DNA from: Torpedo marmorata
Lineage: Eukaryota
Length of the DNA stretch: 64,000 nucleotides
Direction of reading: 5' to 3'
Assembly: GCA_977017645.1 (NCBI GenBank)
Contig: OZ360219.1
Span: 211,358,001-211,422,000, forward strand
Shown: piece by piece, positions 6,522 through 42,102 of the stretch
Layout: each line of letters starts with the position of its first letter
Numbering within the stretch: the first letter of the stretch is position 1
Translations under genes and position numbers: made by a program
Notes under the pieces: generated by a model
The model's database searches: none
What the model saw: only the letters and a program-made list of their open reading frames with translations
Told to the model about the DNA's origin: nothing

Positions 6522-7386
6522 TGTTACAGAATCAAACCAGCAACGCCAGAAGACGCAATGCAAAAGGGGTAAAAATTGAAATTATTATTTATTAAACACA
6601 AGTAAACATATAATTTCACAACAATTAACCCCACTATAAACGTCTATAAACTCTATTCTTATCTAAAAGGTGTATGTGTGTGTGTGTAAAGCCCAGACCA
6701 TTACAGTCTGTGCCCAACCCTTATGTAAAAAAATGGAAAAAACTTTCCCCAAAAACCCCAGGTCAGTCATAAAAAAACAAGTCAGTCAAAAAAAAGATAA
6801 ACAGTCTACAAATTTACTCTCTAAGTTCAGGCTTCAACTTTTCCTCTGGGTCTGGTAGAAGTACTTCTGAATGAACGTTGGAGAGAGACAAATGACTGAT
6901 TATGCTTACAAATACTTGTTTTCTTCTCTGATGACGTCCCCTTCTTGTAGGTTCATAAGGATTGCAAGTTCCAGATCCGTATATCTCTGATTTAGGCGTA
7001 TGCTTGAATCTCACAGCTAGCCTTGCTGATCTCACGCCTGTTCAACACCGAAGTTGCTTTTCTCTCAGAATTTCTCTCTGAGACAGGAGGCCATGTGCTA
7101 TTCTGTCAGTCTTTCTCTGACTTTTGCACACAAAATTGGATCTGGCTGTTCTGTAGCCTTGCAACTCACAACTGTCTGCTTTGCAGAGATCTGCCCCTGC
7201 TTTTTGCAAAAGTGCAACAATGTATCTATTCCACAGTCTGTCTGTCTCTCTCTCTCTCTCTCTCTGGGTACACCAAGTCCTGGGGAAGTTAACTTTTTCA
7301 GTACCTGGCCCCAGTGTTTCCTCCAAAAGAATTCATCCTTCCTGCTGACCGTCCACAGTCCAAATGGTCAGTCATGGTCCATAACA
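6522..7386 (-). repeat. 3' LTR of Gmr1-like element
   Basis: Direct repeat of 11507-12372; by eye it differs only in one poly(A) length. Confidence 0.95.
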
Positions 7387-7518
7387 CCTCCCACCCTCAA
7401 AGGAAATTTTGGTCTGCAAGAACAAAATTTAGGAAAGTAAGTGAGGTGTCAGAATATAAACAAAATCTACAATGTTCATCCACAAATACAAAATATGAAC
7501 TATTTTCATTAATAAAGT

Positions 7519-10500: not shown

Positions 10501-11400
10501 ACACCTTTTAATCTCCTCGATTATTATCAATTCTCTCAATTGATTGTAATCATTGTTTACTTCCTTAGATGTGCACCACCTATCAAAACACACAACCTTT
10601 TCATAGGCAAACTCTGTATAAGATTGGGTTGCTGATCTTTTTAGATTTCTAAACTTCTGTCTATAAGCCTCTGGAACTAACTCATAAGCCTGGAGTATAG
10701 CCTTTTTCACCGTTTCATAATCAGCAGCTTGTTCTGTGGTGAGAGTAGAATAAGCTTGCTGAGCTTTTCCTTTAATTACACTTTGTAACATAAGAGACCA
10801 TTGGTCTTGTGGCCATTTCAATTTCACAGCCACTTTCTCAAAATGTTGGAAGTACTTATCTATTTCTGCCTCCTCAAATGGAGGAACCAACCTAACTTCT
10901 CTACTAGCCAAAAACCCCTCAGCAGGATGACGAATTTGATTTTGGTGCTCTTCTTGTCTCCTCTCATTTTCCAACCTCATCTTTTCCAGCTCATATTTCC
11001 TATTTTTCTCCTCGTTCTCATATCTCTTTTGTTCTCTGTCTATCTCCATTTCTAATTTCTTTTGTTCCAATTCCCTGTTCTTTTGTTCCCTGTCTGCCTC
11101 CAATTCCCTGTTCTTTTGTTCCAATTCCAATTTCTTTATTTCCAATTGTATGTTTTCAGAAGGTTTACCCTTGGGAAACTGCTCTAACATGCTCTCCTCA
11201 AATTTTTTTTCTTTTATATAGTATTTGACTATTTTTCTCCCAATCTCTGCCTTTTTCATAGATGGTTTTACAGAAGCAATGCCCAACTCTGTTGCTATAG
11301 CCACTAACTGTTCCTTTTTCGCCTTTTTTAAAGTATCAGGTTCAGGTGATTCCAAAAAATGTTCTACATCCATTGTTGCTGGTTTTTTTGTTACACACAC
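7519..11400 (-). CDS. Gag(SCAN-like capsid, CCHC)-protease-integrase-RNase H polyprotein lacking the RT core
   Basis: CHYCRKEGHIIASC zinc knuckle; LRDTGA protease; H..H/C..C integrase zinc finger; DCVGP...SDQG...E core; then YVVGQG...LAVDASD...YSTIEKE...TDHNPL RNase H; no YxDD motif. Confidence 0.9.
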   Translation of the reverse strand: MCVTKKPATMDVEHFLESPEPDTLKKAKKEQLVAIATELGIASVKPSMKKAEIGRKIVKYYIKEKKFEESMLEQFPKGKPSENIQLEIKKLELEQKNRELEADREQKNRELEQKKLEMEIDREQKRYENEEKNRKYELEKMRLENERRQEEHQNQIRHPAEGFLASREVRLVPPFEEAEIDKYFQHFEKVAVKLKWPQDQWSLMLQSVIKGKAQQAYSTLTTEQAADYETVKKAILQAYELVPEAYRQKFRNLKRSATQSYTEFAYEKVVCFDRWCTSKEVNNDYNQLRELIIIEEIKRCVPEDIKVYLDEKEVKTWRDSAKLADGYALTHKPKWTSGRIFQKVTVDNQKQVESKFGSGVKERDEGKWKRENNSGPICHYCRKEGHIIASCPVLKKKREKDATPNACIQSEKMHNTQEGDKFTDQVKDVFKPFVTDGFVSVKAGSKQVPVKILRDTGAAQSLVLDSVLEFCEATDTGDINLIKGIGGEVESIPLHKIVLNSDLVEGPVIIGVRSELPVDGVSLLLGNDLAKGKVVPAVRMTTKPVIDKSEKDSDIYPACAITRAMSKKNVTVEKAVENNLVKGKDRDNQENLEKVELSPMLHPSTDKTPEGTDLSLSRQELIARQKDDPDLADVRDKVLSEEEIKKVPVGYYGKDGVLMRQWRPRDVPANEEWAVVQQVVIPKVYRDEIITLAHSTPLGGHLGVKKTISKIMKQFYWPSLRREVVSFCRACHTCQVVGKPNQGPPVAPLQPIPAFSEPFSRVIVDCVGPLPKTKAGNEYLLTIMCAATRFPEAIPLRNIKAKSIVKAMVKFFTLVGLPREIQSDQGSNFMSGVFQQVVDGLGVKQIVSSAYHPESQGALERFHSTLKTMIRTYCCEKEKDWDEGVHLLLFAARESVQDSLGFSPFELVFGHEVRGPLRLLKEQWINRDVHLNLLDYVSKFKDRLHRACEMAKENLKATQQKMKVWYDRKAKMRTFKPGENVLVLFPILSNPLRARFSGPYKVKSKINEVTYVIETPNHRRDTQVCHVNMIKPYFEQVPHKGTEHLPVVLVIDRGKEETDKTSFREGHGTVNSWSYVVGQGKLAPVEAKVVAISEFPVPTGKKTLRRFLGMIGYYRKFCKNFADLALPLTNLLRKKEKFVWSTGCQEAFVKLKAMLCHQPVLKSPNLEQSFSLAVDASDEAVGAVLLQKKNEEDIEHPVSYFSKKFNDHQRNYSTIEKELLALVLALQHFDVYICTAQKPLIVYTDHNPLVFLCKMKNKNRRLLNWSLILQEYNLVITHIKGRDNVIADCLSRC

Positions 11401-11479
11401 ACTAGCTTTTAATTAGCTTTACCAAAAGGAATGCCTTAAACCAAACTGGGATTCCTTCAATTACCAAGATGGATTTTGA

Positions 11480-11503
11480 TTCAAATCCCGCAACGAGCCC
11501 CCA
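11480..11503 (-). promoter_or_regulatory. Primer binding site, tRNA-Pro
   Basis: Minus strand TGGGGGCTCGTTGCGGGATTTGAA, versus the canonical tRNA-Pro PBS TGGGGGCTCGTCCGGGAT. Confidence 0.85.
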
Positions 11504-11506
11504 ATT

Positions 11507-12372
11507 TGTTACAGAATCAAACCAGCAACGCCAGAAGACGCAATGCAAAAGGGGTAAAAATTGAAATTATTATTTATTAAACACAAGTAAACATATAATT
11601 TCACAACAATTAACCCCACTATAAACGTCTATAAACTCTATTCTTATCTAAAAGGTGTATGTGTGTGTGTGTAAAGCCCAGACCATTACAGTCTGTGCCC
11701 AACCCTTATGTAAAAAAAATGGAAAAAACTTTCCCCAAAAACCCCAGGTCAGTCATAAAAAAACAAGTCAGTCAAAAAAAAGATAAACAGTCTACAAATT
11801 TACTCTCTAAGTTCAGGCTTCAACTTTTCCTCTGGGTCTGGTAGAAGTACTTCTGAATGAACGTTGGAGAGAGACAAATGACTGATTATGCTTACAAATA
11901 CTTGTTTTCTTCTCTGATGACGTCCCCTTCTTGTAGGTTCATAAGGATTGCAAGTTCCAGATCCGTATATCTCTGATTTAGGCGTATGCTTGAATCTCAC
12001 AGCTAGCCTTGCTGATCTCACGCCTGTTCAACACCGAAGTTGCTTTTCTCTCAGAATTTCTCTCTGAGACAGGAGGCCATGTGCTATTCTGTCAGTCTTT
12101 CTCTGACTTTTGCACACAAAATTGGATCTGGCTGTTCTGTAGCCTTGCAACTCACAACTGTCTGCTTTGCAGAGATCTGCCCCTGCTTTTTGCAAAAGTG
12201 CAACAATGTATCTATTCCACAGTCTGTCTGTCTCTCTCTCTCTCTCTCTCTGGGTACACCAAGTCCTGGGGAAGTTAACTTTTTCAGTACCTGGCCCCAG
12301 TGTTTCCTCCAAAAGAATTCATCCTTCCTGCTGACCGTCCACAGTCCAAATGGTCAGTCATGGTCCATAACA
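11507..12372 (-). repeat. 5' LTR of Gmr1-like element
   Basis: Direct repeat of 6522-7386; followed on the minus strand by the PBS. Confidence 0.95.
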
Positions 12373-18920: not shown

Positions 18921-19316
18921 CTAATCATGTCACATCTGCACCCCCCAACCATGAACCTCACAACAAATAAAAGCAGTAGATATTGTGCTGTTGCATGGGA
19001 AATTAATTACTTTCAATTGATACATTTGGTTTTAAATCAATTAATTTTGATTAAATGTGGCTGTTTGGTTGACAGTGAAGATTTCAAAATAGCGAATGAG
19101 TTTATGTTCTATGTTCAGAAAAGTTAACGGAGAAAGCCACTGGAATTGCTGAGTACTGAGTAGATGCTCCACACTTGTGGCCGCAAGGCAATGATCTGGC
19201 CCTTTCTGTCACTCACAAAAGGATCTTGACCTAATTCTTAGTCTCGTCTCTATAGTCCTCGAGTTCCTAACCACTGGAAATAGTTTGTACATTCCAGCAG
19301 TTCCCTCAATATCCTG

Positions 19317-19888
19317 TATAGTGACTTCAATCCAACAAATAGTCACTTAGAGGCTAGGTGAGATATTTGTTCTTGACACGTTTCAATTAATTTACTAACA
19401 AGTCCAATATGTTCAAAAAACTTTATTTACACACGTGACTTGTAGCAATCTTCAATGTCTTAAATATCTTCTTTAAACAAAATATAAAGAATTCTTGATA
19501 ACGATGCTTAATAAATTCCTTTAAAAGATTCCTTTCAAAGATTCCTTTAAACGTCATTTAAATGTCTTTAAACGTTCAATGAAACGTTCAATGAAAGATA
19601 TGGTGATCTCACTCACCCTCCTCTAAGCCGCCATCTTTTTCTATTATTTTTTCCTCGATTCGCGCATACTCCAACGCGCATACTCCACCGCGCATACTGC
19701 CGTAACTTCCCAACTGCACATACTGCAATCACTTCCCCACTGTGCATGCGCCCGTTGGAACTCCCGCGCATGCGCAGAGCACTAAATAGGCCCAGCACGG
19801 CCTACTAACCTCCGCGTCTCCTCCGAAACCCGCTGAGACCATCAGAGCGCCGCGATTAAGGTAAGTAACTAAACCTACGGCTCTTACA
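19317..19888 (-). repeat. 3' LTR of BEL element
   Basis: Direct repeat of 32486-33060, several percent diverged by eye; internal GCGCATACT-type and TTCCTTT short repeats. Confidence 0.92.
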
Positions 19889-19992
19889 CCGGCCCCTAAT
19901 TATTATAATTAGACACAATGTCTTAAATAATAATTACACAATAAATTACAAATAACAATAACCATATAACATTCAAACAATATACAAATCTT

Positions 19993-21017
19993 TTTTTTAT
20001 TATTTTATTTAAACTTTTAAATCACAAAATACATAGAGTAAAATATAAAATTGTCAAAATACATGTGATATATTTTCACCCCCCCACCTCCCTCCCCTCC
20101 CTAGCCCCCCCCCTCCCCACTAATCTAATAATATAAAGTAACAGTAAAAATAAAAATAGAAAAAAGAAAAGAAAGGAAAAGATAGAGTAAGGGGAATATC
20201 ATCTATAAACTAATTCTATTACGGAGGTCAAGTTTGCCAGTATATCCGATATCTAGAGATCTTCAAATCCTTAAACCCACAGCTCTCATATATGGGCTCC
20301 AAATTTTCAAAAAGAAATGATATTTATTACATAGATTATAAGGATTTTTTTCCAGTGGTATACACGAACGAAGTTCTGCATGCCATCTTTCTAATCCTAA
20401 ATCTAAGTCAGATTTCCAAGTAATAGCAATGCATTTTTTCAAAACTGCTAAAGCAATTCGTAAAAATTCTACTTGAAACATATTTAATTTCTTTTTAATA
20501 CTAAATTTTCTAATATCTCCAAATAAAAATAACATAGGATCCATTGGAAATGTAATATTACCGGTAAATACTTTATCTAAATTTTTTTTAAATTTCAACC
20601 AAAAATCTTGAATTTTTGGACAAAACCATATAGAATGTACAAAAGAACCTTCATCATTATTACATCTAAAACATAAACCTGATAATGTCGGATTAAATTT
20701 CTTTAATTTTTTAGGTGTTAAATATAATTGATGAAAAAAATTATATTGTACTAATCTATATCTAACATTGATAATCTTCGTCATACTTAATTTACATAAT
20801 TCTTTCCAATGATTTTCATCTATTCTTACATTCAAATCTAATTCCCACTTTAATCTTGATTTATGAATTCCAAATTTAGGCATTTTCTTCTGAAACAATT
20901 TATACATTTGAGAAATAAATTTATTAACTTCTCCATTGGTGACTAATAATTCTAATTCATTTTGTCTTGGTAAAATCAAAGCATGACCTAATTTCTCAAT
21001 TTTAAAAAATAAGCTTT
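19993..21017 (-). mobile_element. 5'-truncated L1
   Basis: ORF2 C-terminus 20263-21024, 3'UTR and poly(A); flanked by tatacaaatctt at 19981-19992 and 21018-21029. Confidence 0.9.
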
Positions 21018-21030
21018 TATACAAATCTTC

Positions 21031-22390
21031 TTTTTTTTTTTTTATATAATTTTATTTAAATTTTAAAATCACAAAATACATGAATCAAAAATAGTATATT
21101 ATTCAAAATACATGTGATATATTACCTCCCCCCTCCCACCCTCCCCTCCCCAACCCCCCCAATACTATTCTAAAAAAAAAAGAATGTTAGTTATAAAGAA
21201 AAAAAAGAAAGAATTGAATAATAAAGTGAGGAGAAAACAAATTACAAGCTAATTCTATTTATATATTGGAGGTTATTTTTGCCAGCGGTACCAACTTCTA
21301 GAGAATTAATTCATACCCATAATTCTCATATATGGGCTCCAAATTTTCAAAAAGAAATGATAATTATTCCGTAAATTATATGTAATTTTTTCCAATGGTA
21401 TACAAGAACGTAATTCTGCATGTAATCTATCTAAATTCAAATCTAAATCTGATTTCCAAGTAATAGCGATACATTTCTTTGAAACCGCTAAGACAATTCG
21501 TAAAAATTCTATTTGATACATATTCAATCTATTTCTAATACTAATTTTTTTAATATCTCCAAATAAAAATAACATAGGGTCCATTGGAGCCGTAATATTA
21601 AAAATTCTATCCAAAAAATCTTTAACTTTAGACCAAAAATTTTGAATTTTTAAACATGACCATGTACAATGTACAAAAGAACCTATTTCATCCTTACATC
21701 TAAAACACATATCTGATAGTGCCGGGTTAAATTTCTTTAATTTTTTAGGTGTTAAATATAATTGATGAAAAAAATTATATTGTACTAATCTATATCTAAC
21801 ATTAATAATTTTAGTCATACTCAATTTACATAATTCTTTCCAATGTTTTTCATCTATATTAATATTTAAATCTGATTCCCAACTTAATCTTGATTTATGT
21901 AATCCTACCTTAGGCATTTTTCTCTGAAGTAATTTATACATTTGTGATATAAATGTGTTAACATTTCCATTAGTAATTAATAATTCTAATCCATCCTGTC
22001 TTGGAGTTGTTAATTGATTCCCCAATTTCTCAACTAAAAATCCTCTAACCTGATAGTAAGCCAAAATTGTATTATCCATTATTCCAAATTTTTCTTTCAA
22101 CCTAGAAAATGTAACAAATCTTCCAGCCTCAAAACAATCTTTAATCTTCTTAATTTCTTTTTGAAACCATAGTTTTAAAAATTGATTATCAATAGAAAAA
22201 GGTAACAATAAATTCTGATACAATGGCATATTCAGAGATAATGACCCTTTTCGTCCTATCTCATTGTCAAATTGAGTCCAGATTTCCAATAAATGTTTAA
22301 TAATCGGTGATTTTTTCTTTTTAACTAATAATAATTTAGAATTCCATTTATAAATAATATCTTCTTTATATCTTTCCCCTATATTATTCA
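21031..22390 (-). mobile_element. 5'-truncated L1, same subfamily as 59078-63540
   Basis: ORF2 C-terminus ending YMRIMGMN; flanked by tatacaaatcttcttttt at 21018 and 22393. Confidence 0.9.
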
Positions 22391-22886
22391 AATATACAAA
22401 TCTTCTTTTTTCTTTCTTCATAAGACCAGAGTTTACCATAACTCTGAATCAACAAAAGCCTGTAACCTGTGAAGTATACAACAACAAATAAAGTCAGTTT
22501 GTATTTATCAAAGTTCCTCCATCTCCAACAGAAGGCAGACCTTGTTAATAGGTCTATTTAGAAAACCGGTCTTAGTTTTAATTCGAACTTGACGCACAAG
22601 ACCCCTTTTGTCCTGAATAGTCTCAATAATTTTTCCAAGTAACCAGGAATTTCTTGGAGCTGAATCGTCCATAATAATTACAATGTCTCCTCAAAGTTCT
22701 TTTATCTCCAGCATCTTTGAGTTAAAACGTCGACCAGTAAACCTCAAATCTTCCTCAGAAAAAATAGATACAGTTTTTCTTTTGAATTTAACACGAGGCA
22801 CTTCTTCAGCATGTCGTTTCACTTTATTCCTTTCTTCAGCATTCCACTTCTCATCTGAAGAATTTAAACTCTTAGAACTAGAATTT

Positions 22887-25094
22887 TCGGGTGGAGTGGG
22901 AATATTTATTTGCTATTTTAGATAAATTTAATTTTGGTTCTGATTTTATTAAATGGATTAAGTTACTATATTCTTGTCCTATGGCCTCAGTTCGGTCCAA
23001 TTTACAACAATGTTTTGTCTTAATAGAGGAACCCGACAAGATTGCTTGTTAAGTCCTTTGCTTTTTGATATAGTATTAGAACCTTTAGCTGTTGCTCTTC
23101 GACATTGTAGAAAATTTAAAGGTATAACTAGAAACGGAATTGAACACAAAGTATCTCTCTATGCGGATGATTTATTGTTATTTATTTCAAACCCTGAAGT
23201 CTCTATACCAAATATATTAACCCTATTTACTCAATTTAGTCAATTTTCAGGGTATAAATTAAATCTACAAAAGAGTGAACTATTGCCCTTAAAAGGACCT
23301 TTTATTGGTTATTCTAATTTTCCGTTTAAAATAGTGAACAATCAATTCCAATACTGAGGAATAACAATTACAAAAACCATAAAAATTTACTGAAAGAAAT
23401 TTTTTGGGTATTAGTTAATAAGGTTAAATTACAATTAGCGGGTTGGTCAATTACAATGATGGGCCATATTAATTTGATTAAAATGAATATTTTGCCTAAA
23501 TTTTTATATCTTTTCTAATCTTTACCAATTTTTATTCCTAAAACCTTTTTTATTTCATTGGATTCAATTCTTTCTTCATAAATATGGCAGGGAAAATATC
23601 CACGTATAAATAAATCCCATCTTCAAAAAATTAAAAGGAATGGAGGATTATCACTTCCAGATTTTAGGTTTTATTATTGGGCGATTAATATTCGTAATTT
23701 GCTTTTGTTATTGCATTTTGATAAGTTACAGAATCGCCCATCCTGGGTGGAAATGGAATTGAAGTTTTCAAAAAAAACATCTATGTTAGCAATTTTAGGA
23801 TCCTTTTTACCATTTTCATTTGTTAGAATAACTCATAATCCGGTATTGAGATATAGGTTGAGAATATGGGCACAGTTTAGAATTTTTTAAAAATTTAATA
23901 GCTTTTCTCTGGCTAGTCATATTATAGATAATAAACCTTTTCCAGCCGTCTGTGATGGATGTAGGATTTAGGGAATGGTATGGATTGGGAATTCATAGTT
24001 TTAATGATCTTTTTATTTGAGATAGTTTTGCCACTTTCGAACAATTGGTCAATAAATTTAATCTTACTAACAGACATTTTTTTAGATACTTACAAATTAG
24101 ACATTTTGTTCAGTCTAAGATTTCAGATTTTCCTCGAATTTTAAGTTCTAATTTTTCTCGATTTACTTTTTAATATACGGTTCTTTTTCAACGTCGATTA
24201 ACATCATGTATATATAATAATTTATTGGTACCGGTAATTAGAGTAGCTTCTATGACGGGGATCAAGAATGAATGGGAATGTGATTTGAATGTTACATTTT
24301 CAGATCAAGATTGGTACAATGCTCTTGATCTAATTAACGCCTCATCTTTTTGTGCTAGATACTGTTTATTACAATTTAAAGTGGTGCATAGAATTCATAT
24401 GTCTAAACTTAAACTATCACATATTTACTCTGTCATAGATCCATTGTGTGAGAGATGTAAAATTTTTGAAGTTTCATATGTTTTGGGAATGCCCCAATTT
24501 GGAGAGATTTTGGAAGGACATTTTTAAATCTTTATCATTGATTTTTAAGATTAATATTGAACCATGTCCTATAATTGCTCTGTTTGGTTTTTCACGTGAA
24601 CTTAACATACCTTTGTCAGCATCACAGGAAAAAGTTTTAGTTTTTTCCACATTGATTGCCAGACGGGCAATTTTATTGAAATGGAAAGATGAGTTATCAC
24701 CGACAGATAGACAATGGTTACTAGATGTAATGTCCTTTCTGAGTTTGGAGAAAAATTAGATATAATATTAAAGATAGAAAGTTTCAATTTTTAAAGATCT
24801 GGGGGCCATTCATTGAATATTATCATGATTGGAAGAATTAATAAAACTGACTATCCCGGGGACTCTGTCCGATGCTTGGAGGTCGCTACAGGATCCATAT
24901 CCATTTTTTACAATATCAAGGTAACCTTACTTAGAGGGAGGGGTTAGAATTGATTAGTTATTAGTGTGTTTTTTTTTTACTTAGTATACATGTATGAATA
25001 CCAGCTGATTTTTTGAATGTTTTTCTTAATCTTGTTACTCTGTATACATGTTTATTATTGAAACTCAATAAAAATATTTTAAAAAAAAAGAAAT
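22887..25094 (+). mobile_element. Older 5'-truncated L1 of a different family inserted into the BEL ORF
   Basis: EWEYLF..., RGTRQDCLLSP, SLYADD; AATAAA and A tail at ~25067-25089; degenerate TSD aactagaattt (22876-22886) / aactaaaattt (25095-25105). Confidence 0.85.
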
Positions 25095-28000
25095 AACTAA
25101 AATTTGAATATTTATCTGATCCTCTCGATTTTAATAAACGAGTTTCATTAACCATTCTGGTTTCTATTGCCTTTTCCTGCAATTCCAAATCCAATTTTGA
25201 AACTTTCAACTCAGTCTCAGTTCCTTCCGAGAAATTAATAACTTGATCTGAAGTGAAAATATCATGGGATACATTGGTATTTCTATTGTCAACTCTGCTG
25301 TGGTAAACTTGAAATTTTTTAATTTCTTCATCTTGCTTGTTACATTTCTGCAATGCAATATCACTTTCTTTCTGCATTGTTAGTAGCTGAACATTCAATT
25401 TACATTCTTGATTGTTTTCTATAATCAACTGTTTTGTGTTATTAACCAATAACTTGTTATCTTTCAAAATATTAATCTCTTCCTCCAACCTTTTACATTT
25501 TGATAATGCTGAATCTCTTTCCTCAATAACTGTATTTATTTCTTCAGCAGTTATTCTTTTCTTCCGCTTTCTGACTTTGCAAATTTTACTTACAATTAAA
25601 TCTTTCTGTTTACTGTTTTCATGATTATCTAATATTTCCAATTCCCCTTTCAACATTTTGTTCTCTGAATTCAATAGCATTAAATTATCATTCACATTCT
25701 TCTTTATTCCATCAGCACAATTTCCTGTGTTCTCCAATTTTACATCACATTGTAACATTTCTTCAATGACTTTGTCTGTTGTAACCTCTGAACTACAAAA
25801 TCTACTTTCAGATTTGTTCTCAGTCACTTGTTTTATTCCTGTATCTGATTCAATTACACATGAATAATCACTTGTATTATTTGTAACATCTTCTAGTACT
25901 TCATTTTTATCCATTTCTGATGAACATAATTCCTTCAATGTTGTTTTAAATACCCTTGATTTATTTTCACATTGATCTGTTTTATTTTCTTCAAAAGTGA
26001 CTTTCTTATTCACAGTCTTTTGCTCTTCTCTTAACTCATCAACTTTCACAACCAATATCCTGTTAATATTTATCGCTAACTGTTCCTGAGCAATATCATT
26101 ATTTCTTTCCAATGGTGCATTGATTGTCCAACCAAGCTTGGTTCTGACAACGTAAGGTCCATTCCCTCTACTCCGTATTACATCTAGTGGTTCCAAAACC
26201 TTTGGCACATCTGAACCAATCAGCATTTCTATTTCAAAATTAACTTCAGGTAGACAAACATTTTTTCAGATAAGACCACCGTTTAATATAATTTTGATGA
26301 GGAATATTTCCTTTATGCACAGGCAATGTCTTCTGAGTATATAAACTTGGAAGATCACAAAATTTTTTATCATCCAATCCAACAACATCTAAGCCTGAAA
26401 CAATGCTGGTTTCTATGACCTTTTCTTGTCCCATGGTTTTCAACATAATTCTTGACCTTCTTCCTTGAATATTAAATTTGTTCATTAGTCCTTCCGTGCA
26501 AAAACATGCAGTGCTGCCTGGGTCAAAAAATGCATATGTATGTACTGTTGCATCCCCTTTCTTGGTCTTGACTTGTACAGGCACTATTGAACCGAGGTAA
26601 TAACATTGTTTTCTGTTTACTCCTTTTCCAATTCCTTGTTTCTTTGATGGATATGCAACATTCTAGGATGTTTCAAATTGCATATGTTACAATTAGTTTG
26701 CTTCTCGCAGTTCTTACTGATGTACCCTTTACACAGACAGCTAAAACATATTCCATTTTCCTTTAAGAAAGCGATCTTCTCATTATGTTCCTTCTTTTCC
26801 AACCGTAAACTAATTCCCAAAGCATGTCCACCTTTACAGAACAAACAACTCTTCTCATCAGGCAAACTTTCCTTTTCCTTATTTACTTTGTCCTTTTCTT
26901 TATTTATAACTGACACATTAGTCGCAAAAGTACTCATTTTCAATTTCGGACTAGGCTGTGAGTTAGACCTCCTTACATCTTTGCCCATTGAATTGTCTCT
27001 GGTATTTCCATATATTGGATCTGTTTCAATGTACACCTATCATTCAAGAAAATTTACCGTCCTTTAAATTAGCTCTTCGACTGTAATTTTCTTGTATATC
27101 ACAAGCCAAATTTCTCCATCTATCCCACAACTTGTAAGGTAATTTTTCTAAGATGATTCGCATATTACCAGGCACTTCAAGCTCACGAATATTATCGATA
27201 TCTTCCATGGCATTACAACATCCTCTTAAAAATAGAGTATATACTTGTAGAGCCTTTACATCATTCTGTTTTATTGATGTCCATTTAAGAGCTTTATCCA
27301 TATAAGCTAAAGCAATTCGATGCTTGTTGCCAAAATGTTGTTCTAGTAAAAGCCTTAGCTCTGTCTAATCCTCTTTCTGAAGACATATGTTGACAACTCT
27401 TTACAAGTTCTTTTGGATATCCTTCTGTAAACATTTCCAAATAATAAAAACAGTCTTCAGGGCCTTGGAATTTATTTTCAATATTGCATTTGAAAGATCT
27501 CATAAATAATTGGTACTGAAGTGGATCACCATCAAAAGTTTGTATCTCTTTCTTGGGTAAAGAAGAGAGAGACTGTAACTGAATCAATGATGCAGCAATT
27601 TCATTTTGTCTTCCCTTGGATGACAATACATTGCTCTGATCACCATCTCTTGTTACAGGTAATGTATCTGGAAACCTCACTGGTGTAGTTTCTCCCATAT
27701 TTCTGATGCTTGACTCAAATGACAAGGGAGCTGCATCGTTCGACCGAACCCAAGCCACAGCTTTGTCTTCAGATATTACCACTGGTACATGTGACTCGAT
27801 ACCACTATGCTATTGAAGGATTTGTCCTTGTATTTGCAAGTCTTGTACCCCTGTTGTTAAAATATCTACTCTTTTGGTTGGTTTCTTTTCCTGTGACTTT
27901 TTTATTAAATATGACCTTTTATTATCAGATACTTTAGATAATTTACTTCGAGCACCAGATACCATTGAGCCTTCTATTGCTTCCTTTTTTGCCTTGGCAA

Positions 28001-28678
28001 TAGTAATGTTTGCTTTCAGCTCCTGCAGCTCCTTTCTCTGCCTTAGCTGCTCCTTCTCTTGCCTTAGCTGCTCCTTTAGCTGCTCCTCCTGTCGTTCTAA
28101 AATTTGTTTATCCTTAAGCGTCTTTTTGTTGTGCAAGAAGAGCGGCCAAGTTAACTTCAATCTTTGTACGTGATGATGCAGAACTTGAAGTATGAGAAAC
28201 TCTGGAGCTTGAACCAGAACTTTGTTTGCTTCTCCTGCTTTCAGCATTTGAGACACTGTCACTTGCTTGTATTTCGTCCTGCAGGTCAGATGTTGTCTTC
28301 TTACTTACCCTCTTCACCAATTTGAATTGTACATCCTTTGTGTTGTGTATTTCGGGGTGTAAGCTTACAATAACACACCGAGACGACTGTCTTCATTCAT
28401 CCTTTATTACTAAACTAAAATGGTATTCAGCGTTACCCCTTATATAGTACGTATGACGTCATTACGTCATACGTTATACGTTACATATACAACACTCTTC
28501 CCCCCCCCACGAAATATAGATTGTTATTATATGATTATATATTCCCCGATCACTGGTAAACTATTGTAACTACTGGAATATAGCGGGGAAACTACAACTA
28601 TAAACAAAAATCATGCAAGTAAAACTAGAACTACTAACTGTTAGTATCATACTGATCATCACTAAAGTGAAAAATCAT

Positions 28679-30700
28679 TTAAGGTACATAGTCTCTCAAA
28701 TGTTCTGGTGGACGTCGTTGACGATGTGATCTTCTTAGGGGTGGATCCCCTACAGCCGTCGAAACCAATGGACTCTTTGCCTTTTTGGGACTCTTTGCCT
28801 TTTCTGGACTCTTTGCCTTTTCTGGACTCTTTGCCTTTTCTGGACTCTTTGCCTTTTCTGCTGTAATATCTTCTTCGAAATGGAAACTGGAATCTGGAGT
28901 CTGTCTTTCTAGATCAGCATCATCGTCATTAACCAAAAATGGCAAATTCTTCAGCTCATCTGTGCAAGAAACTGGATCTTCCACAGCTCTCAGCTGGTCA
29001 ATATGTCGTTTCCATATGTTAGAGTCTACTTGTATTGCATATGAGCAAGGGCTTAGCTTCTTAATGATAACACCTCTTACCCATGTTTCTTTATTATTTC
29101 TGTAATCTCTTACCAACACTCTTTCACCCACTTCCAGAGATCGTGTTGGTTTAGTTGGTGAGGTGTCGTATTCAATACGACCGCTGATATCCGGATGCAC
29201 TGCGGATAGCCTCGTTCGAATATTCCTACCAAACATTAATTCTGCTGGCGTTCTTTTAGTTGTTGAATGCGGTGTATTTCTGTATCCTGCCAGGAAATTT
29301 GCTATTCTATGATTCCATGACAAGTTAAGCAATTTTCCTGCTTTCATTGCGTTTTTAAATGTTCGCACAAAACGTTCCGCTTCTCCATTAGTACTCGGGT
29401 GGTACGGTGCTGAAAGTACATGGCGTATACCATTCTTACGCATGAACATTTTAAATACATCTGAAGTAAACTGAGGACCATTGTCTGATACTAATTCCAC
29501 TGGTGATCCAAATGATGCAAACATAGTTCTTAATTTTTCAATTGTTTGGAGGGTTGTTGTGGTACGCATATGTGAAACTACTAGCCATTTGGAATGTGCG
29601 TCGACCACAATCAAGAAATTCTCCCCCATAAATGGACCTGCAAAATCAACATGAATTCTATGCCATGGTCGAGATGGCCATTTCCATGGATTTGCCTCGG
29701 CCTGGGGAGCTTTAGGTTGCATGTCTTGACAAATGCCACACCTTCGTACAGTTTGCTCAATATCCATATCCATTGATGGCCACCAAACATGCATTCGGGC
29801 TAGCGCTTTCATGCGGACTATTCCCGGATGGTTATCATGCAGTTCTGCCAATATGTCTTTTTGCCATTTCCTGGGAATAATAGTCCTGGCCCCCCATAAT
29901 AAACAACTTTGTTCAATAGTTATTTCATTTCGTTGGATGTAGTAAGGTTTAAGTTCTGCAGAAATAGTGTCCCCTTCTGGCCATCCATTTAATGTAAAAT
30001 ATAAAACCTTGGCCAGTGTTGGTTCATTTCTTACTTCTTTACTGATTATTTTGGCTGTGATGGGCAGATGGCGAAGCTGTTCTTGATTAATAGCTGTGGC
30101 CTCTGATGTCCATTGAACTATCTCTTCTGTTTGACCCGTCTCCGGCAGAGGTAGGCGTGACAAGGCATCAGCATGTCCATTTTGTGTTGCTGGTTTATGT
30201 TTCAACTCATAATCGTAAGCGGCAAGCATTATTGCCCATCTCTGGATTCTGGTTGCTGCCAATACTGGGATGCCTTTTTTAGATCCCAAAATAAAACTGA
30301 GTGGTTTGTTGTCCATTACTAATGTGAATTTCCTTCCATATAAATACTGGTGGAATCTTTTGATTCCGAATACTATGGCCAATCCTTCTTTTTCTAACTG
30401 TGCATAATTTCGTTCACAAGCTGTCAAAGATCGAGATGCATACGCCACTGGTTGCTCTCCCTCTTTTTCTAATCTATTAAGTTCTGCGTCAATTTTTCCT
30501 TTTATCGCAAACGGTACTGTCCTTGGTTTATAAAACTTTGGTTCCGCCTCTGGTTTCAATTTCAATTGTGCCTCCACTCCTTTGATTTTCCCCAGACCTT
30601 TATTAAATAATGTCTGATACTTCTTTAGCACTTGTGATAACTTTGATTCATCTCCTGATTGAACCTTTAGCACTGATCCAATCTCCATCCAATCTAATGG
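28679..30700 (-). CDS. Truncated Pol: partial RNase H + intact integrase + KSP-repeat tail (start uncertain)
   Basis: ELNRLEKEG joins directly to EQPVAYASRSL; HPGIVRMK, HVDFAGP, VSDNGPQF, NGEAERFV integrase motifs. Confidence 0.85.
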   Translation of the reverse strand, partial: PLDWMEIGSVLKVQSGDESKLSQVLKKYQTLFNKGLGKIKGVEAQLKLKPEAEPKFYKPRTVPFAIKGKIDAELNRLEKEGEQPVAYASRSLTACERNYAQLEKEGLAIVFGIKRFHQYLYGRKFTLVMDNKPLSFILGSKKGIPVLAATRIQRWAIMLAAYDYELKHKPATQNGHADALSRLPLPETGQTEEIVQWTSEATAINQEQLRHLPITAKIISKEVRNEPTLAKVLYFTLNGWPEGDTISAELKPYYIQRNEITIEQSCLLWGARTIIPRKWQKDILAELHDNHPGIVRMKALARMHVWWPSMDMDIEQTVRRCGICQDMQPKAPQAEANPWKWPSRPWHRIHVDFAGPFMGENFLIVVDAHSKWLVVSHMRTTTTLQTIEKLRTMFASFGSPVELVSDNGPQFTSDVFKMFMRKNGIRHVLSAPYHPSTNGEAERFVRTFKNAMKAGKLLNLSWNHRIANFLAGYRNTPHSTTKRTPAELMFGRNIRTRLSAVHPDISGRIEYDTSPTKPTRSLEVGERVLVRDYRNNKETWVRGVIIKKLSPCSYAIQVDSNIWKRHIDQLRAVEDPVSCTDELKNLPFLVNDDDADLERQTPDSSFHFEEDITAEKAKSPEKAKSPEKAKSPEKAKSPKKAKSPLVSTAVGDPPLRRSHRQRRPPEHLRDYVP
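28769..28860 (-). repeat. 18-bp tandem repeat encoding (EKAKSP)x5
   Basis: (tggactctttgccttttc)n on the + strand. Confidence 0.95.
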
Positions 30701-31418
30701 ATTTCTGTTTGTTACTTTTCTGGTACAGCAATTTTCTGCTTGGACATCTAGTTTTGATATGTCCTTCTTTATCACAATAATGGCATTTGGCCTTTCTAAA
30801 GTAACAACTGTCAGGGCTGTGGTTGCTTTTTCCGCAGCGAAAGCACTGTGGTTTACCAGGTTTGTTAACATATCCTACTGTTGAGGCTTCTCCCTGTATG
30901 ATATCAATATTTTTCCCAGCCATTTCGAAACTTAATGCTGTAGCATAAGCAGTGGCAATATTTAAATCTGGTTTACTCAGCAATCGTTGTTGGGTGGTAC
31001 GGTCAGCTAGACCCATCACTAACTTGTCTCTTAATGCATCATTTAAGAATTCACCAAAGTCACAACGTTCTGATAACTGACGTAGTTCAGCCAAATATTC
31101 GCTTATTGGCTCGCTTATTATTTGTTTTCTAGAGTAAAACTTATAACGCTCTGCAATAATTACAGGTCTTGGACATAGGTGTTCTCCTATTACTGTGCAT
31201 AGTTCATCATAAGTTTTAGTACTTGGTCTCTCAGGTGCCAACAGAGACTTCATAAGTTTAAAAGTTTTACTTCCCACTTCACTTAAGAATAAAGCTGTTT
31301 TTCTGCTTGTTACTGGTGTATCAACTACATTGTGGGCAACACAGTACATATTGAATCTTTCAATGTAGTCATACCAGTCTTCTGAGTCTTTGAACTCTCC
31401 GAAACGGCTGTCGGCCAT
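30648..31418 (-). CDS. Gag with two CCHC zinc knuckles
   Basis: DWYDYIERF...AERYKFYSRKQ...LRDKLVMG; CFRCGKSNH and CHYCDKEGHIKTRC. Confidence 0.88.
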   Translation of the reverse strand: MADSRFGEFKDSEDWYDYIERFNMYCVAHNVVDTPVTSRKTALFLSEVGSKTFKLMKSLLAPERPSTKTYDELCTVIGEHLCPRPVIIAERYKFYSRKQIISEPISEYLAELRQLSERCDFGEFLNDALRDKLVMGLADRTTQQRLLSKPDLNIATAYATALSFEMAGKNIDIIQGEASTVGYVNKPGKPQCFRCGKSNHSPDSCYFRKAKCHYCDKEGHIKTRCPSRKLLYQKSNKQKSIRLDGDWISAKGSIRR

Positions 31419-32485
31419 TTTGAGTTGTTTTCCCGCGTTTTTCTTCTTTCTTCTTTCTTCTTTGTAAGTGAGCTTATGGAGCTCACTGTTTCTTTCTTCT
31501 TTCTTCTTTTCTTCCCCTCCCTTTCCTTGTTAGTGAGGTCCGTTTTTATCCTCGTCGCCAATCTGTTGTGTATTTCGGGGTGTAAGCTTACAATAACACA
31601 CCGAGACGACTGTCTTCATTCATCCTTTATTACTAAACTAAAATGGTATTCAGCGTTACCCCTTATATAGTACGTATGACGTCATTACGTCATACGTTAT
31701 ACGTTACATATACAACACTCTGCATCTTCATCCTCTTAATTTTCTTCATCCTCTTCATTTTCTTCATCATTTGGTGACACAATTTCAGCCATTTCCTTGC
31801 TATTTTCTTGTTCATCTAACGAAACCGTATCTTCCTTTGCCAGCTTCAGTCTTGCGATGAGAACCCTTTTATTTCCACTTATATCTAGTTTCATTCGCTT
31901 CAATTCTTCTTTAATATCCGCAACCTTCATGTCTTCAATACGTTGGTCCTTAACAGCAACATCAACGATTGCCGCGTCAGCTGCCGATACATCAGTAGCT
32001 GCTGCATCAGTGGCTGCTGCGGCCATTTTACTCGTCTTGTTCCACTGTCCTTCAAGCATACACAACACTAGCCAAATCAGCAGTCCCCAATGGACTAGCG
32101 GCAGCAAATCCAATCTGTGTTCTAACTTGCCAAAGATACACAGAAAAAGTCCACATACTTATGCCTACCACTTCAGATGACTGTAATGTGCTACTATTCA
32201 CAAATGAGTTTCAACCACAACATCCATCAATAATATCGCTGATTTTCCAAAAATGGTTTCTCCAACGTATTTATAGTACACTTTACTATAAGATTTGAAG
32301 CTTTAAATGACTCTCTACCTGTTACACATGGCAGATGGATGTGGATTACAAACTGCCCCCAACTCGACGCATCTCCAAGATGGCCGCCATTTTATTTTAA
32401 ATATCAGTCCAAAGCTCAGAGAGATTATTCTATCTTCTTTCCTTCAATTTTCTGTTCCATACAATAACTCTTTCATTGACTAAAA

Positions 32486-33060
32486 TATAGTGACTTCAAT
32501 CCAACAAATAGTCACTTGGATGCTAGGTAAGAATCCTTGTTCTTGACGCATTTCAATTAATTTACTAACAAGTCCAATATGTTCAAAAAACTTTTTTCAC
32601 ACACGTGACTTGTAGCAATCTTCAATGACTTAAATAACTTCTTTATACGAAATATAAAGAATTCTTGATAACGATGCTTAATAAATTCCTTTAGACGATT
32701 CCTTTCAAAGATTCCTTTAAACGTCATTTAAATGTCTTTAAACGTTAAATGAAATGTTCAATGAAAGATATGGTGATCTCACTCACCCGCCATCTTTTTC
32801 TATTCTTTTTTCCCCGATTCGTTCATGCTCACTGCGCATATTTCACCGTGCATACTCCACCGCGCATACTGCCGTAACTTCCCAACTGCGCATACTCCAG
32901 TCACTTCCCCACTGTGCATGCGCCCGTCGACACTCCCGCACATGCGCAGAGCACTAAATAGGCCCAGCACGCCCTACTAACCTCCGCGTCTCCTCCGAAA
33001 CCCGCTGAGACCATCGGAGCGCCGCGATTAAGGTAAGTAACTAAACCTAATGCTCTTAGA
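32486..33060 (-). repeat. 5' LTR of BEL element
   Basis: Direct repeat of 19317-19888. Confidence 0.92.
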
Positions 33061-33139
33061 TCCTGAATACCTCAATCAAATCACCCTGAACACTTTAAAT
33101 TCCACTGTCTACAACTCTGGTCTGTGATTTCTACTTGAA

Positions 33140-37602: not shown

Positions 37603-40600
37603 TGATAGGCCTATCAATAAGCACTCAAAAGACTGAGTGGGAACGAACCATAGGCTTTTATTATCATTAAACACAGCTACAGTCGACCTGCAGATCTGAT
37701 CCCGGACTGTGGGCGGGACGGTGGCACAATGGCCTTTATTCAGGTGAGGAAGGGGGAGGGATTACCGGACACCCAGGGGAGGGGGAGGAGACACCGGGAC
37801 AGACCGCAGGACATACTCATACTACACAATATACCTAAACAATGGTTTACCACATTCACCCCTCCTTTTTAAAAGAGTCCAGTGGGGTGACGTGACCACA
37901 GTGACAATTTTACAGAAAACAGATATTTACATGCAATTTTACAGGTCAAGGCGATCCGGTGGTCTGATTCGCCGCTGCGACCTGCGCAGTCCTTGTGGTG
38001 ACGGGGCGGGTTGTGGTGATGGGGGAGATGGCAGGATTGTCTGTGAGGTCGCCTCCTGCCTGGCTTCTTGGAGTGTATTTGGTCCCGGCGAGGGTGCTGG
38101 GTCTGACGTGCTGGAAGGGGGATTGGGGAGGGGTTGCAGCAAGTGGTCTTGCCCGTCGGGAGTTCTTCCGGTGCTCCAGCGTGCGCCAGGTCACGAATTG
38201 ACACCGTGTCCTCTCGCCCATCAGGGAAGACCACGTAGGCATACTGCGGGTTAGCGTGCGCTAACTGCACCCTCTGGACCGTCGGCTCATATTTGCTGCT
38301 CCGAAGGTGGTTGCGGAGCAGCACTGGTCCCGGGGACGTCAGCCAGGCAGGTAGGGTGGTTCCGGTGTTCGACTTCCTGGGGAAGGAGAAAAGTCGTTCG
38401 TGAGGGGTTGCATTTGTGGACGTGCACAGCAGGGACCGGATAGAGTGGAGGGCTTCGGGGAGGACATCTTGCCAGCGGGAGACTGGCAGTCCCCTGGACT
38501 TGAGAGCCAGGAGCGCGGCCTTCCAGACAGTAGCGTTCTCCCTTTCCACCTGTCCATTTCCCCGGGGGTTGTACCCTGTGGTCCTACTAGTGGCGATGCC
38601 TCGGGTCAGTAGGTACTGTCGCAGCTCCTCACTCATAAAAGCTGATCCCCGGTCGCTATGTATATAGTTCGGGAAACCTAACAGCGTAAATACCTGGCGA
38701 AGAGCTTTTATGGTTGAGGTAGCCGAAGTGTCGGGACAGGGGATGGCAAAGGGGAACCGCGAGTACTCATCAATAATATTCAGAAAGTACACATTGCGGT
38801 TCGTGGAGGGAAGGGGGCCCTTGAAGTCAATGCTGAGACGTTCAAAAGGGCGGGTGGCTTTGACCAGCTGTGCCTTGTCGGGGCGGTAGAACTGAGGTTT
38901 GCACTCCGCGCAAACCCACAACTGCTGATCATTGTCCTGACCTCTTCCAGGGAGTATGGCAGGTTCCGTGACTTAACGAAATGAAAGAGCCTGGTAACTC
39001 CTGGGTGGCAGAGGTAGTCATGTAGGGCGCATAATCAGTCGATCTGCGCGCTGGCGCATGATCCCCGGGATAGAGCATCGGAGGGCTCATTGAGCTTCCC
39101 GGGCCGGTAAAGGATGTCGTAATTGTAGGTGGAGAGTTCTATTCTCCACCTCATGATCTTGTCATTTTTGATCTTACCCCACTGCTGATTGTTGAACATA
39201 AACGCCACCGAGCGTTGATCTGTCAGCAGGGTAAAATGCTTACCGGCGAGATAGTGCCTCCAGTGCCTGATGGCTTCCACTATGGCCTGGGCTTCCTTCT
39301 CCACCGCGGAGTGCCGAATTTCGGGGCCTTGGAGGGTCCGTGAGAAAAACGCCACCGGCCTTCCCGCCTGGTTGAGGGTAGCAGCCAGCGCGAAGTCCGA
39401 TGCGTCGCTCTCTACCTGAAAAGGTGTCTCTTCATCCACCGCGTGCATTGTTGCTCGTGCAATGTCCCCTTTTATAAGGTCAAACGCCTTACGCCCCTCC
39501 GAAGCAAGGGGAAATGTGGTGGATTTCACAAGGGGTCGGGCCTTATCCGCATAATTGGGAACCCACTGTGCATAGTATGAGAAGAACCCGAGGCATCGTT
39601 TAAGGGCTTAAGGGGTGGAGGGAAGTGGAAGTTCCAGCAGGGGCCGCATGCGGTCGGGGTCGGGTCCAATCACCCCGTTCTCTACCACATACCCCAAAAT
39701 AGCAAGGCGAGTGGTACCAAACATGCATTTATCTTTATTATACGTGAGGTTTAATGCTTTGGCCGCCTGCAGGAACCTCCGGAGGTTGTTGTCGTGGTCC
39801 TGACGATCATGACCACAGATGGTAATGTCATCCAGGTATGGAAAAGTGGCCTTGAGTTTATAGTGATCCACAATCCTGTCCATCTCCCGCTGGAATACTG
39901 ACACACCATTAGTGACCCCGAAAGGAACACGCAGGAAATGGAACAGCCTGCCATCCGCCTCGAACGCAGTGTATGGGCGGTCCTCCCTTCGGATAGGGAG
40001 CTGGTGGTATGCCGATTTTAGGTCTATCGTTGAGAAAAACCTATACTGGGCAATTTGATTTACTATATCCGCTATTCGTGGTAGCGGATATGCGTCCAGC
40101 TGCGTGAATCGGTTGATGGTTTGGCTGTAGTCCACCACCATCCTACTCTTGGCCCCTTTTACTACGACTACCTGGGCTCTCCAGGGGCTATTACTTCTCT
40201 CAATAATCCCCTCCTGTAATAACCGCTGCACCTCCGTCTTGATAAACGCCCTGTCCCCCGCACTGTATCGCCTGCTCTTGGTTGCCACAGGCTTACAGTC
40301 AGGGGTCAGGTTGGCGAATAGCGACGGGGGCGAGATCTTAAGGGTGGAGAGGCCACAGGTAGTCTGGGGCATGTTGTTCAGGAACTGGTGGTTCGCTACA
40401 GTGATCGCAGGGTGGGGACCGTCATACCGCATCGTGACACTCCGTAAGTGGCTCTGAAAGTCAAGACCCAGTAATACCGGCGCACATAAACGATTCATAA
40501 TAAATAAGGAGAATTGCCGATACTCTGTCCCTTGTACCACAATATTCGCCACACAAGCCCCCCGGATGTCTGTTGTGTGTGACCCAGACGCCATGGCCAC

Positions 40601-42102
40601 CCTCTGGCTTACCGGTATGGTAGTCAGGCCACAGCGCTGAACAGTGTCTGGGTGAATAAAACTCTCCGTGCTGCCAGTATCAAAAAGACAAGTGGTTTTG
40701 TGCCCCTCCACCAGGATGTCCATCATGGATCGCGACAGCTGGTGGGGAACACTCTGGTCGAGGGTGACTGATGCTAAGGTCGGGATGTAGTCATCTTGAT
40801 CCGCAGTTGTTAAAGATGGCTGCTCCCGTGGGTTGCACATGTCGCTGCCGCTCGCACTGCAAGATGGCGGCGGTGGAAGTGCCGGAAGTACCGACGTAGG
40901 GCTATAAGATGGTGGCGCCGGAAGTGCCAGCATCAAAGATGGCCGCCTCCACTCTTCGCACGAGGTCGACGCCGGAAGTGAAAGCAGGTAAGATGGCCGC
41001 TCCCGCATCTCGCACGCAGCGCTACTCGGACCCGCGCATGACTTGGAGCGGCAGGCCTTCGCATAATGGCCTTTCTTGCCGCAGCTGGAGCAAGTCGCGT
41101 CACGGGCCGGGCAGCGTTTCCTTTGGTGCTTGTCGAGCCCACAGAAGTAGCACTTCTCGGGCTCGCAGTTAACAGCTGCGGCGGTGAGAATAGCGGCGGT
41201 AGCGATCGGGTCGCGGCAAACGGCGGCGGCAGTCAGATCGCTGGCAGGGCTAGGGGACGGGGCTGACCACGTTGCAGGCTGGGGGTCGCGCGCCTGCATG
41301 GCGTCCGAGTTCCGCAGCGCGGCCTCCAGCATGTGGGCCATTGAGACAGCAGTACGGAGGTTCAGGTCGGCGTGCTCCAGCAGCCTCTGGCGCACGTATA
41401 CCGACCTGATCCCCATGATAAACGTGTCCCTCTCCAGCAATTCGACGTTTTCCTCAGCAGTCAGCGCCTTACAGTCGCACGCTCGTACCAGCGACTGTAT
41501 GTCCCTGACAAACTCCACGATCGACTCCCCGGCCCGCTGTTTTCGCGTAGAAAGTCGGTACCTCGCGTAGACCGCGTTAACAGGCGTCACGTAGATTCTC
41601 TTCAGCGCATCCATCGCCTCCGTGTAGGTTTTACAGTCCCGAACTGTCGAGAATAACCGAGGGCTTACCCTGGACACGAGGACCCTTAGTTTCTGCTCCT
41701 CGCTTTCCGCTTTGATCGTCATCATAAAGGACTCGAGACAGTGTAGCCAGTGTTCAAAAGAGTTACCGGCATCAGGAGCTAGATGATCGATGTCCAGTCG
41801 GTCCGGTCTTAGAGTGCTCTCCATCAGATTTTAAATGATAATAAAATTGATAGGCCTATCAATAAGCACTCAAAAGACTATGAGTGGGAACGAACCATAG
41901 GCTTTTATTATCATTAAACACAGCTACAGTCAACCTGCAGATCTGATCCCGGACTGTGGGCGGGACGGTGGCACAATGGCCTTTATTCAGGTGAGGAAGG
42001 GGGAGGGATTACCGGGACACCCAGGGGAGGGGGAGGAGACACCGGGACAGACCGCAGGACATACTCATACTACACAATATACCTAAACAGTGGTTTACCA
42101 CA
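37603..42102 (-). mobile_element. GC-rich Ty3/Gypsy LTR retrotransposon, nearly complete (gag-PR-RT-RH-IN with frameshifts)
   Basis: LTRs 37603-37854 and 41848-42102; exact TSD GTTAT; PPT AAAAGGAGGGGTGAA; LFDTGS, YPLP, DLKSAYHQ, YLDD, ESDASD and SIDFKGP/SDRG motifs. Confidence 0.95.
37869..41824 (-). pseudogene. Gag-Pol of the third Gypsy, split into 39608-41824, 39035-39529 and 37869-38921
   Basis: Domains are collinear across frameshifts near 39608, 39035 and 38925; these could be real or consensus errors. Confidence 0.88.

Follow-up and report, generated by a model that had tools for sequence, protein, structure and literature searches.

A pol-less BEL/Pao retrotransposon family of Torpedo marmorata that carries pieces of BRCA1, MIPOL1 and Elongin A, with its MIPOL1 exons in back-splice order

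The window analysed here is a stretch of 64,000 nucleotides from the genome of Torpedo marmorata (assembly GCA_977017645.1, contig OZ360219.1, positions 211,358,001 to 211,422,000), and positions given without a contig name refer to it. Between 19317 and 33060 the window contains a dead, minus-strand copy of a non-autonomous family of BEL/Pao LTR retrotransposons, whose LTRs of about 570 nt differ by 6.1% and which is flanked on both sides by the 5-bp target duplication TCCTG (33061-33065 and 19312-19316). Without insertions the members of this family are about 5.8 kb long and consist, in order, of LTR, SAP-gag, protease, cargo, tail and LTR, and the place of reverse transcriptase (RT), RNase H and integrase is taken by intronless, sense, in-frame pieces of the host genes BRCA1, MIPOL1 and Elongin A.

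Read along the minus strand, the 5' LTR (32486-33060) is followed by the leader and the start of gag (31718-32485), which includes a SAP domain (frame 31736-32158; Pfam E 1e-9). The gag region is interrupted by a later insertion, a nested minus-strand Gypsy-type element (28341-31717) with identical LTRs of about 155 nt and a target duplication alike at 4 of 5 positions. The remaining gag (26600-28340) contains frameshifts and stops in the window copy (the unbroken frame of copy L133 matches DUF1759, E 7e-6), and the aspartic protease region (26025-26600) is likewise frameshifted (copy L034 gives a weak DUF1758 match, E 0.003). The cargo begins with parts of two BRCA1 exons from which the intron is gone (25604-26024) and continues with the late MIPOL1 exons F (part), G and H in spliced form (25298-25603). 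At 25297/25298 the donor end of exon H meets the acceptor start of the earlier exon B in a junction of the back-splice type, after which come exons B and C, with 81 nt deleted internally (25153-25297), and the first part of Elongin A (25095-25153). A later plus-strand LINE (22887-25094; 11-nt target duplication, alike at 10 of 11 positions) separates this from the second Elongin A part (22711-22886), which spans a host exon junction. The 3' tail of the BEL element, viz. the end of the DUF5641 region and 3' untranslated sequence (22377-22691), is 91% alike to that of the pol-bearing relative L179. A third later insertion, of minus-strand LINE fragments (19997-22376), lies in the 3' untranslated part, the end of which, with a purine-rich tract and the 3' LTR (19317-19888), occupies 19317-19996. 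The LINE and the LINE fragments are presumably L1-like, judging by their motifs. A solo LTR of the same family at 53709-54145 (minus strand; target duplication 4/5), which the sequence-only reading had pointed out, is real.

Several other features of the window were recorded. The SAP DNA-binding domain at the gag start is a property of the BEL family, its helper included (window 31736-32158 (-); L038:974-1408; L179:916-1566). Three Gypsy-type LTR elements with long open frames are present (6519-12012, 28341-31717 and 37869-41830), the label of the first and last being one that we assume; the first two seem young, with LTRs that are nearly identical. In the pol tail of the second, a short tandem repeat (28785-28860) scores as the neurofilament-type DUF1388 (E 7e-6) and may represent either another captured fragment or just a simple repeat. 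The last coding exon of melatonin receptor 1A is located at 48966-49838 (+) (E 3.5e-161), and the BEL element, upstream of it on the opposite strand, probably lies in a long intron or 5' of the gene.

The sequence-only reading had described a frame that stays open past the protease into sequence foreign to retroelements and lacks the polymerase core, and both observations hold. The frame 24961-26265 (-) reads the end of the protease and then about 310 codons not derived from BEL; no RT, RNase H or integrase was detected by Pfam in six element frames between 24964 and 28304, nor in the 895-codon frame of copy L133, these domains being present only in the sister subfamily. Compared with a pol-bearing relative, the window passes from the protease (26021) straight to the tail (22691). 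The C-terminal BEL/Pao domains are evident in the pol-bearing relatives (Peptidase_A17, E 7.6e-47; DUF5641, E 2.7e-30). All 29 other genomic copies from the first search join position 25095 directly to 22886, and the LINE between them is therefore a later insertion, within the cargo. The Gag-protease-MIPOL1 fusion protein also proposed cannot be read from the window copy, because its gag is broken by frameshifts and by the Gypsy insertion.

The identification of MIPOL1 in the sequence-only reading is borne out by a protein search in which every named match among 104 was MIPOL1 (best, shark MIPOL1, E 7.5e-30); the identity of 54% over 132 aligned residues indicates that this is not a generic coiled-coil resemblance. 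Pfam and solved structures gave no match for the window frame, the vimentin coiled coil at E 0.14 being at chance level. MIPOL1 sequence extends over 25153-25603, beyond the 25297-25600 first assigned to it, and the idea that spliced host sequence had been captured in frame stands, with three genes as its source and not one. The stretch before MIPOL1 matches BRCA1 in 14 of 14 protein matches (best E 1.7e-77; the nearest named BRCA1, at 70%, is that of Narcine bancroftii), and the stretch after it matches Elongin-A of the PDB (E 6.4e-22). The host genes lie at G000:C61:25.488-25.505 Mb (BRCA1), G000:C40:64.32-64.64 Mb (MIPOL1) and G000:C41:38.99-39.02 Mb (Elongin A). Since the Elongin A locus on C41 is 93-96% identical to the cargo over a shared exon, compared with 74-77% for a second locus, it is taken as the donor; the second Elongin A-like gene lies at G000:C25:175.32-175.34 Mb.

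Copies of the family occur in two main forms, a fuller one and a trimmed one. The fuller copies contain four BRCA1, five to seven MIPOL1 and four Elongin A exons, intron-free and in sense orientation, which are mostly 90-99% identical to the host exons; the window copy is of the trimmed form and is 72-90% identical to them. The BRCA1 and Elongin A pieces each span three host introns, and all seven MIPOL1 exons have AG/GT ends in the host, with the intron flanks absent from 5 of 5 fuller copies. The alignment to the host locus thus has the MIPOL1 exon junctions crossed without introns, as expected of captured spliced RNA. The cargo, found in every copy examined, has neither poly(A) nor a target duplication of its own, and it replaces pol and does not interrupt it; intronless host sequence occupies the place of internal reading frames between two LTRs, as in LTR-mediated retrocopies.

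Some observations concern the donor genes themselves. A search for the host MIPOL1 exons D and E with DNA of copy L042 returned BEL tails, and these exons were located by a short pattern and a fetch of the region. The acceptor of MIPOL1 exon B is a tandem NAGNAG (L084), of which the element used the first AG; shark MIPOL1 proteins read as if either AG were used. Four cargo-bearing copies (L075, L095, L103 and L110; G000:C40:64.34-64.50 Mb) lie in introns of host MIPOL1, three of them in the sense of the gene, and could disturb its splicing or annotation. A public Narcine BRCA1 isoform (P0106) is without the RING families listed for other BRCA1 matches, and its first 185 or so residues resemble a retrotransposon Gag, possibly an annotation artefact. 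In a frog MIPOL1 (P0121) one exon-sized block is repeated four times, an exon repetition in the same gene of another lineage.

The MIPOL1 part had been read as plain host mRNA, and this does not hold, for its exons are not colinear with the gene. With the host exons lettered A to I on C40 (letters assigned in this analysis), the order in the element is F(part)-G-H-B-C-D(-E). In the host, a GT donor closes exon H, and the AG acceptor in front of exon B lies 206,169 bases upstream. Among 81 loci examined, 76 have both exons, and in 74 of these H and B are joined exactly, with no base lost or added; the two exceptions have deletions of 10 and 19 nt. Exons B to H together comprise 780 nt (260 codons) and both ends are in the same phase, so that the H|B junction keeps the frame. 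Copy L127 enters MIPOL1 at base 48 of exon F and exits after base 25 of exon E, covering 724 of the 780 nt, just under one round, and the other 56 nt, from exons E and F, are absent from every element copy; in the element copies only exons B to H were matched, with no sequence from exon A or I. In the introns flanking the presumed circle (12 and 15 kb) there are only two short inverted matches (159 and 188 nt), which say nothing for or against it. A reversed exon junction lies at splice sites and the sequence is confined to the exons of the presumed circle, which, as far as sequence can tell, agrees with the definition of circRNA-derived sequences in the consulted parts of a published study (PMC4897178). 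The exon order is that of a back-splice junction, and the MIPOL1 piece was likely copied from a circular RNA.

The junctions of the cargo suggest how it was assembled. Short likenesses between the sequences joined are present at 4 of 5 junctions (2-10 nt; a raw count without randomisation), viz. about 10 nt at BEL/BRCA1, 2-4 nt at BRCA1/MIPOL1, 5 nt at MIPOL1-E/BEL and 6 nt at Elongin A/BEL, while the MIPOL1-D/Elongin A junction contains about 10 nt that match neither donor (560 nt searched). The Gag-protease frame is maintained across the first three host junctions and across the back-splice, and is lost where Elongin A joins the BEL tail. To judge from these junctions, the pattern is one of template switching as described for LTR elements in the parts of Tan et al. 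(2016; PMC5131818) that we draw on. L127 has no Elongin A; its MIPOL1 part extends across exons D and E and then joins the BEL tail at a position 21 nt short of the Elongin A switch point. This structure fits a history in which BRCA1 and MIPOL1 would have been captured before Elongin A. Only one such copy was seen among the 40 scored in the search with L042, and it could be a later recombinant and not an early form.

The family is abundant. A 20-nt pattern across the H|B junction gave 5,476 matches in the 6.22-Gb assembly and its control none, which sets a hard lower bound, and the first DNA search gave 3,472 candidates, of which the 40 that were scored all match over their full length at 96% or higher. 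Of the known copies, 20 of 29, 13 of 21 and 1 of 4 contain the pattern, from which about 8,000-22,000 copies are obtained by scaling. A sample of 675,521 bases that was selected without regard to the element includes 5 copies across the junction (4 of them in the introns of MIPOL1 itself and 1 in 150 kb of arbitrary stretches), corresponding to 46,000 copies (Poisson range about 15,000-107,000). Together these estimates suggest some 10,000 to several 10,000 copies. The family, with solo LTRs and helper copies counted, makes up 4.2% of the sampled bases and 3.9% of the arbitrary 150 kb. When every fifth of the first 100 pattern matches was inspected (20 loci, all on C1), 18 were trimmed, 2 intermediate and none fuller; a search with the Elongin A domain gave 136 matches, mostly fuller copies by position. 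Target duplications vary from locus to locus; they agree at 5 of 5 positions in the window copy, L137, L153 and L156, and at 4 of 5 in L135, L161 and the solo LTR; L146 has none (L133, L134 and L155 were not assessable). Among 1.84 billion representatives there were five matches, none of which is a Gag-cargo chimera by length or, where known, by name. Contigs of three sequencing runs, with three organism codes, cover 30 of 30 bins of one trimmed copy, and were rejected as evidence of expression, none being recorded as RNA and one perhaps being the source of the assembly itself.

Two pol-bearing BEL groups are present in the genome. The group of L132 is closer to the fuller copies (85-94% alike) than to the trimmed ones (70-76%). 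In the second group, sampled by pattern, 9 of 10 matches have a BEL pol before the common tail and one is a cargo recombinant; five whole copies share the LTR type of the cargo family, resemble the trimmed form at 84-93% in gag, protease and tail, and have RT, Pao peptidase and integrase domains, although all helper copies seen are broken. The likeness of the trimmed form to this second group leads us to infer that the cargo moved to a newer chassis, probably by recombination, and that it was the trimmed form, on that chassis, that spread. Separately, L171 (G000:C43:113.93 Mb) has a cargo copy joined to a longer helper tail, another recombinant of two subfamilies. The LTRs of the trimmed form and of the helper start with TGT and end with ATA in place of ACA (window 19317 and 53709; L136, L146, L155, L156); the LTR of the fuller copy L137 ends with ACA. 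The earlier proposal of mobilisation in trans gains support from copies with their own 5-bp target duplications and from a pol-bearing subfamily with common LTRs; the circle, the fusion protein and the mobilisation itself are inferred from genomic sequence.

Changes in the cargo were compared between 19-25 fuller and 51-52 trimmed loci, most of them picked by likeness to the query, with the intermediates L041, L051, L147 and L148 left out. Shared changes on the path from the fuller to the trimmed form comprise 98 replacements and 33 silent changes in codon columns (dN/dS 0.69, versus 0.79 for private changes; p 0.48), and counts against the host exons give 94:34 shared versus 479:128 private (p 0.20). 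The amino acids are thus not measurably conserved, and the analogy with oncogene transduction that the sequence-only reading drew gains no support from them. The open frame behaves differently: none of the 98 shared replacements is a stop, versus 25 of 350 private ones (P 7e-4), and all five deletions common to three aligned trimmed copies (24, 120, 81, 195 and 3 nt) are in frame, whereas this is so for 28 of 128 private indels. Counting against this, some copies (3 of 8 frames inspected) share a loss of 2 nt close to the end of the frame. The frame of the cargo was kept open and its amino acids drifted; on our reading, the peptide is filler. Between fuller and trimmed copies dN/dS is low in gag (0.37) and protease (0.23), but this semblance of purifying selection was rejected as evidence on this element: the trimmed form differs from the younger helper by a pS of only 0.03-0.06 (dN/dS 0.48 from 17 changes in gag, 0.95 in protease), and the signal thus reflects the distance between two helper lineages. 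The term "old" was likewise dropped for the fuller copies, since single copies of the two forms lie 2.4% and 2.8% from the commonest base of each column, and "fuller" means earlier in structure only.

Other origins of the MIPOL1 piece have to be weighed against a circular template. A linear RNA with repeated exons, trans-spliced from two MIPOL1 pre-mRNAs, would leave an identical, exact H|B junction with the rest of the history unchanged, and linear poly(A) RNAs are known templates for LTR capture in the portions of Tan et al. relied on here (PMC5131818). Against this origin, the captured stretch is confined to exons B to H, at just under one round (724 of 780 nt) and with nothing from A or I. 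Back-splicing is the commoner source of such junctions, which also counts against trans-splicing, and we regard it as an unlikely source that still deserves some weight. The disorder of the exons might instead have arisen from two separate switches onto ordinary MIPOL1 mRNA, from a DNA rearrangement, or from an old tandem duplication in the host. The family did switch templates many times, and exons A and H both end in AG, a likeness of 2 nt, but both breakpoints lie exactly on splice sites (rough chance for two random breakpoints, 2.4e-4), and the host region from H to I has no second exon B, only a copy of the element; this group of explanations is very improbable. That a LINE-made MIPOL1 retrocopy landed in one BEL copy after integration is scarcely credible. 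LINE fragments are abundant in the window, but the cargo replaces pol, has no poly(A) or target duplication of its own and is common to all copies examined, and the retrocopy is refuted because its junctions are common to dispersed copies.

A further possibility concerns not the origin of the cargo but its role, namely that the cargo peptide (a BRCA1 spacer, the MIPOL1 coiled coil and an Elongin A piece) serves the element, much as a transduced oncogene serves a retrovirus, and drove its spread. All three pieces are in sense and in the Gag-protease frame, stops and frameshifts have been purged, and the point estimates of dN/dS are below 1 (0.70, 0.73 and 0.44). Shared replacements are nevertheless not fewer than private ones by either count given above, and through the five deletions the most abundant form is short of 423 nt of cargo; it also lacks most of the Elongin A domain. 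We consider such a role improbable, and prefer to regard the cargo as filler.

The explanation that we favour, and to which we would assign a probability of about three in four as a whole, is that of a pol-less BEL/Pao family which acquired its cargo by template-switch capture, with MIPOL1 taken from a likely circular RNA. Within a particle, RT would have switched from the element RNA to co-packaged host RNAs at short likenesses, gone once round the 780-nt MIPOL1 circle of exons B to H for 724 nt, passed to BRCA1 mRNA and then returned to the element; a later switch would have replaced the end of the MIPOL1 part by Elongin A. In-frame deletions would then have trimmed the cargo, and recombination with the younger pol-bearing subfamily would have replaced the LTRs, gag, protease and tail before the trimmed form became predominant, with RT and integrase presumably supplied in trans by that subfamily. 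The open frame may have been kept for reasons other than the cargo protein, the likeliest being that an RNA read by ribosomes almost to its 3' end would have greater stability or enter particles more readily, and that one with an early stop would decay or be packaged poorly. A bolder account, to which we give somewhat better than an even chance, is that one circRNA was reverse-transcribed into a vertebrate LTR element and, together with the BRCA1 and Elongin A pieces, multiplied until tens of thousands of copies made up a few percent of the 6.2-Gb genome. The family would then preserve, as a fossil, a back-splicing event in the germ line of a cartilaginous fish, it would be direct sequence evidence for the packaging of circles by LTR particles and for their copying through template switching, and selection would have acted for translatable foreign filler.

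LTR capture of host genes has here reached a scale relevant to genome size in a vertebrate (about 4% of sampled bases). The copies, dated and numbering in the thousands, started from a sequence that is known, that of the host exons, and thus form a natural experiment on the features that a non-autonomous element cannot do without, apparently an open frame and not a protein. Thousands of fragments alike to BRCA1, MIPOL1 and Elongin A may draw silencing small RNAs onto host genes, and they will confuse gene annotation and the calling of circRNAs in this lineage.

Among known systems, acutely transforming retroviruses also carry host sequence in spliced form, joined to gag where pol would otherwise be, and depend on helpers; the present family differs, on its sequence, in being a germline retrotransposon in which no envelope was found and no activity of the cargo has been shown. 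The maize element Bs1 (PMC13317346; also cited in PMC5131818) is likewise an LTR element with three transduced pieces of host genes in a chimeric frame, but it is a plant element described as a new chimeric gene, with no scrambled exons mentioned in the parts of these papers drawn upon, whereas the cargo protein here shows no sign of conservation. In cattle, defective ERVK D-type forms also dominate new insertions through complementation in trans, but have, according to the abstract, no functional genes and no host cargo (PMC10924933), which the present family has. LTR-mediated retroposition by template switching in animals, with Pao/BEL carriers such as BATUMI and BEL18_AG, was described by Tan et al. 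(2016; PMC5131818); the parts of that work compared here share with ours the replacement of part of the reading frames by host RNA, short likenesses at the switch points, several parental genes at one locus, in-frame cargo and non-autonomous recopying. Those cases are single loci or occupy few sites, and the main text does not use the word "circular"; here the exons are in back-splice order, the copies number at least 5,476, and the frame was kept through many changes. In the open-licence papers and preprints searched we found none that deals with this element or with the amplification of a back-splice junction in the frame of an LTR element; LTR capture and circRNA-derived pseudogenes, the latter still called rare in the sections available of a further source (PMC12747553), are each known, and we found no publication in which the two are combined at this scale. 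The closest parallel is mouse circRFWD2, with 33 high-confidence circRNA-derived copies, a mechanism called mysterious, and LTRs enriched only in the flanks, as given in the consulted parts of Dong et al. (2016; PMC4897178). Like it, the present family has a non-colinear exon junction in genomic copies, no poly(A) and an association with LTRs. It differs from that account in that the junction lies inside the reading frame of the LTR element, with visible switch points and more than 100 times as many copies, and it thereby offers a possible mechanism for the retrotransposition of circRNAs, a question left open by PMC4897178, with switch points readable base by base.
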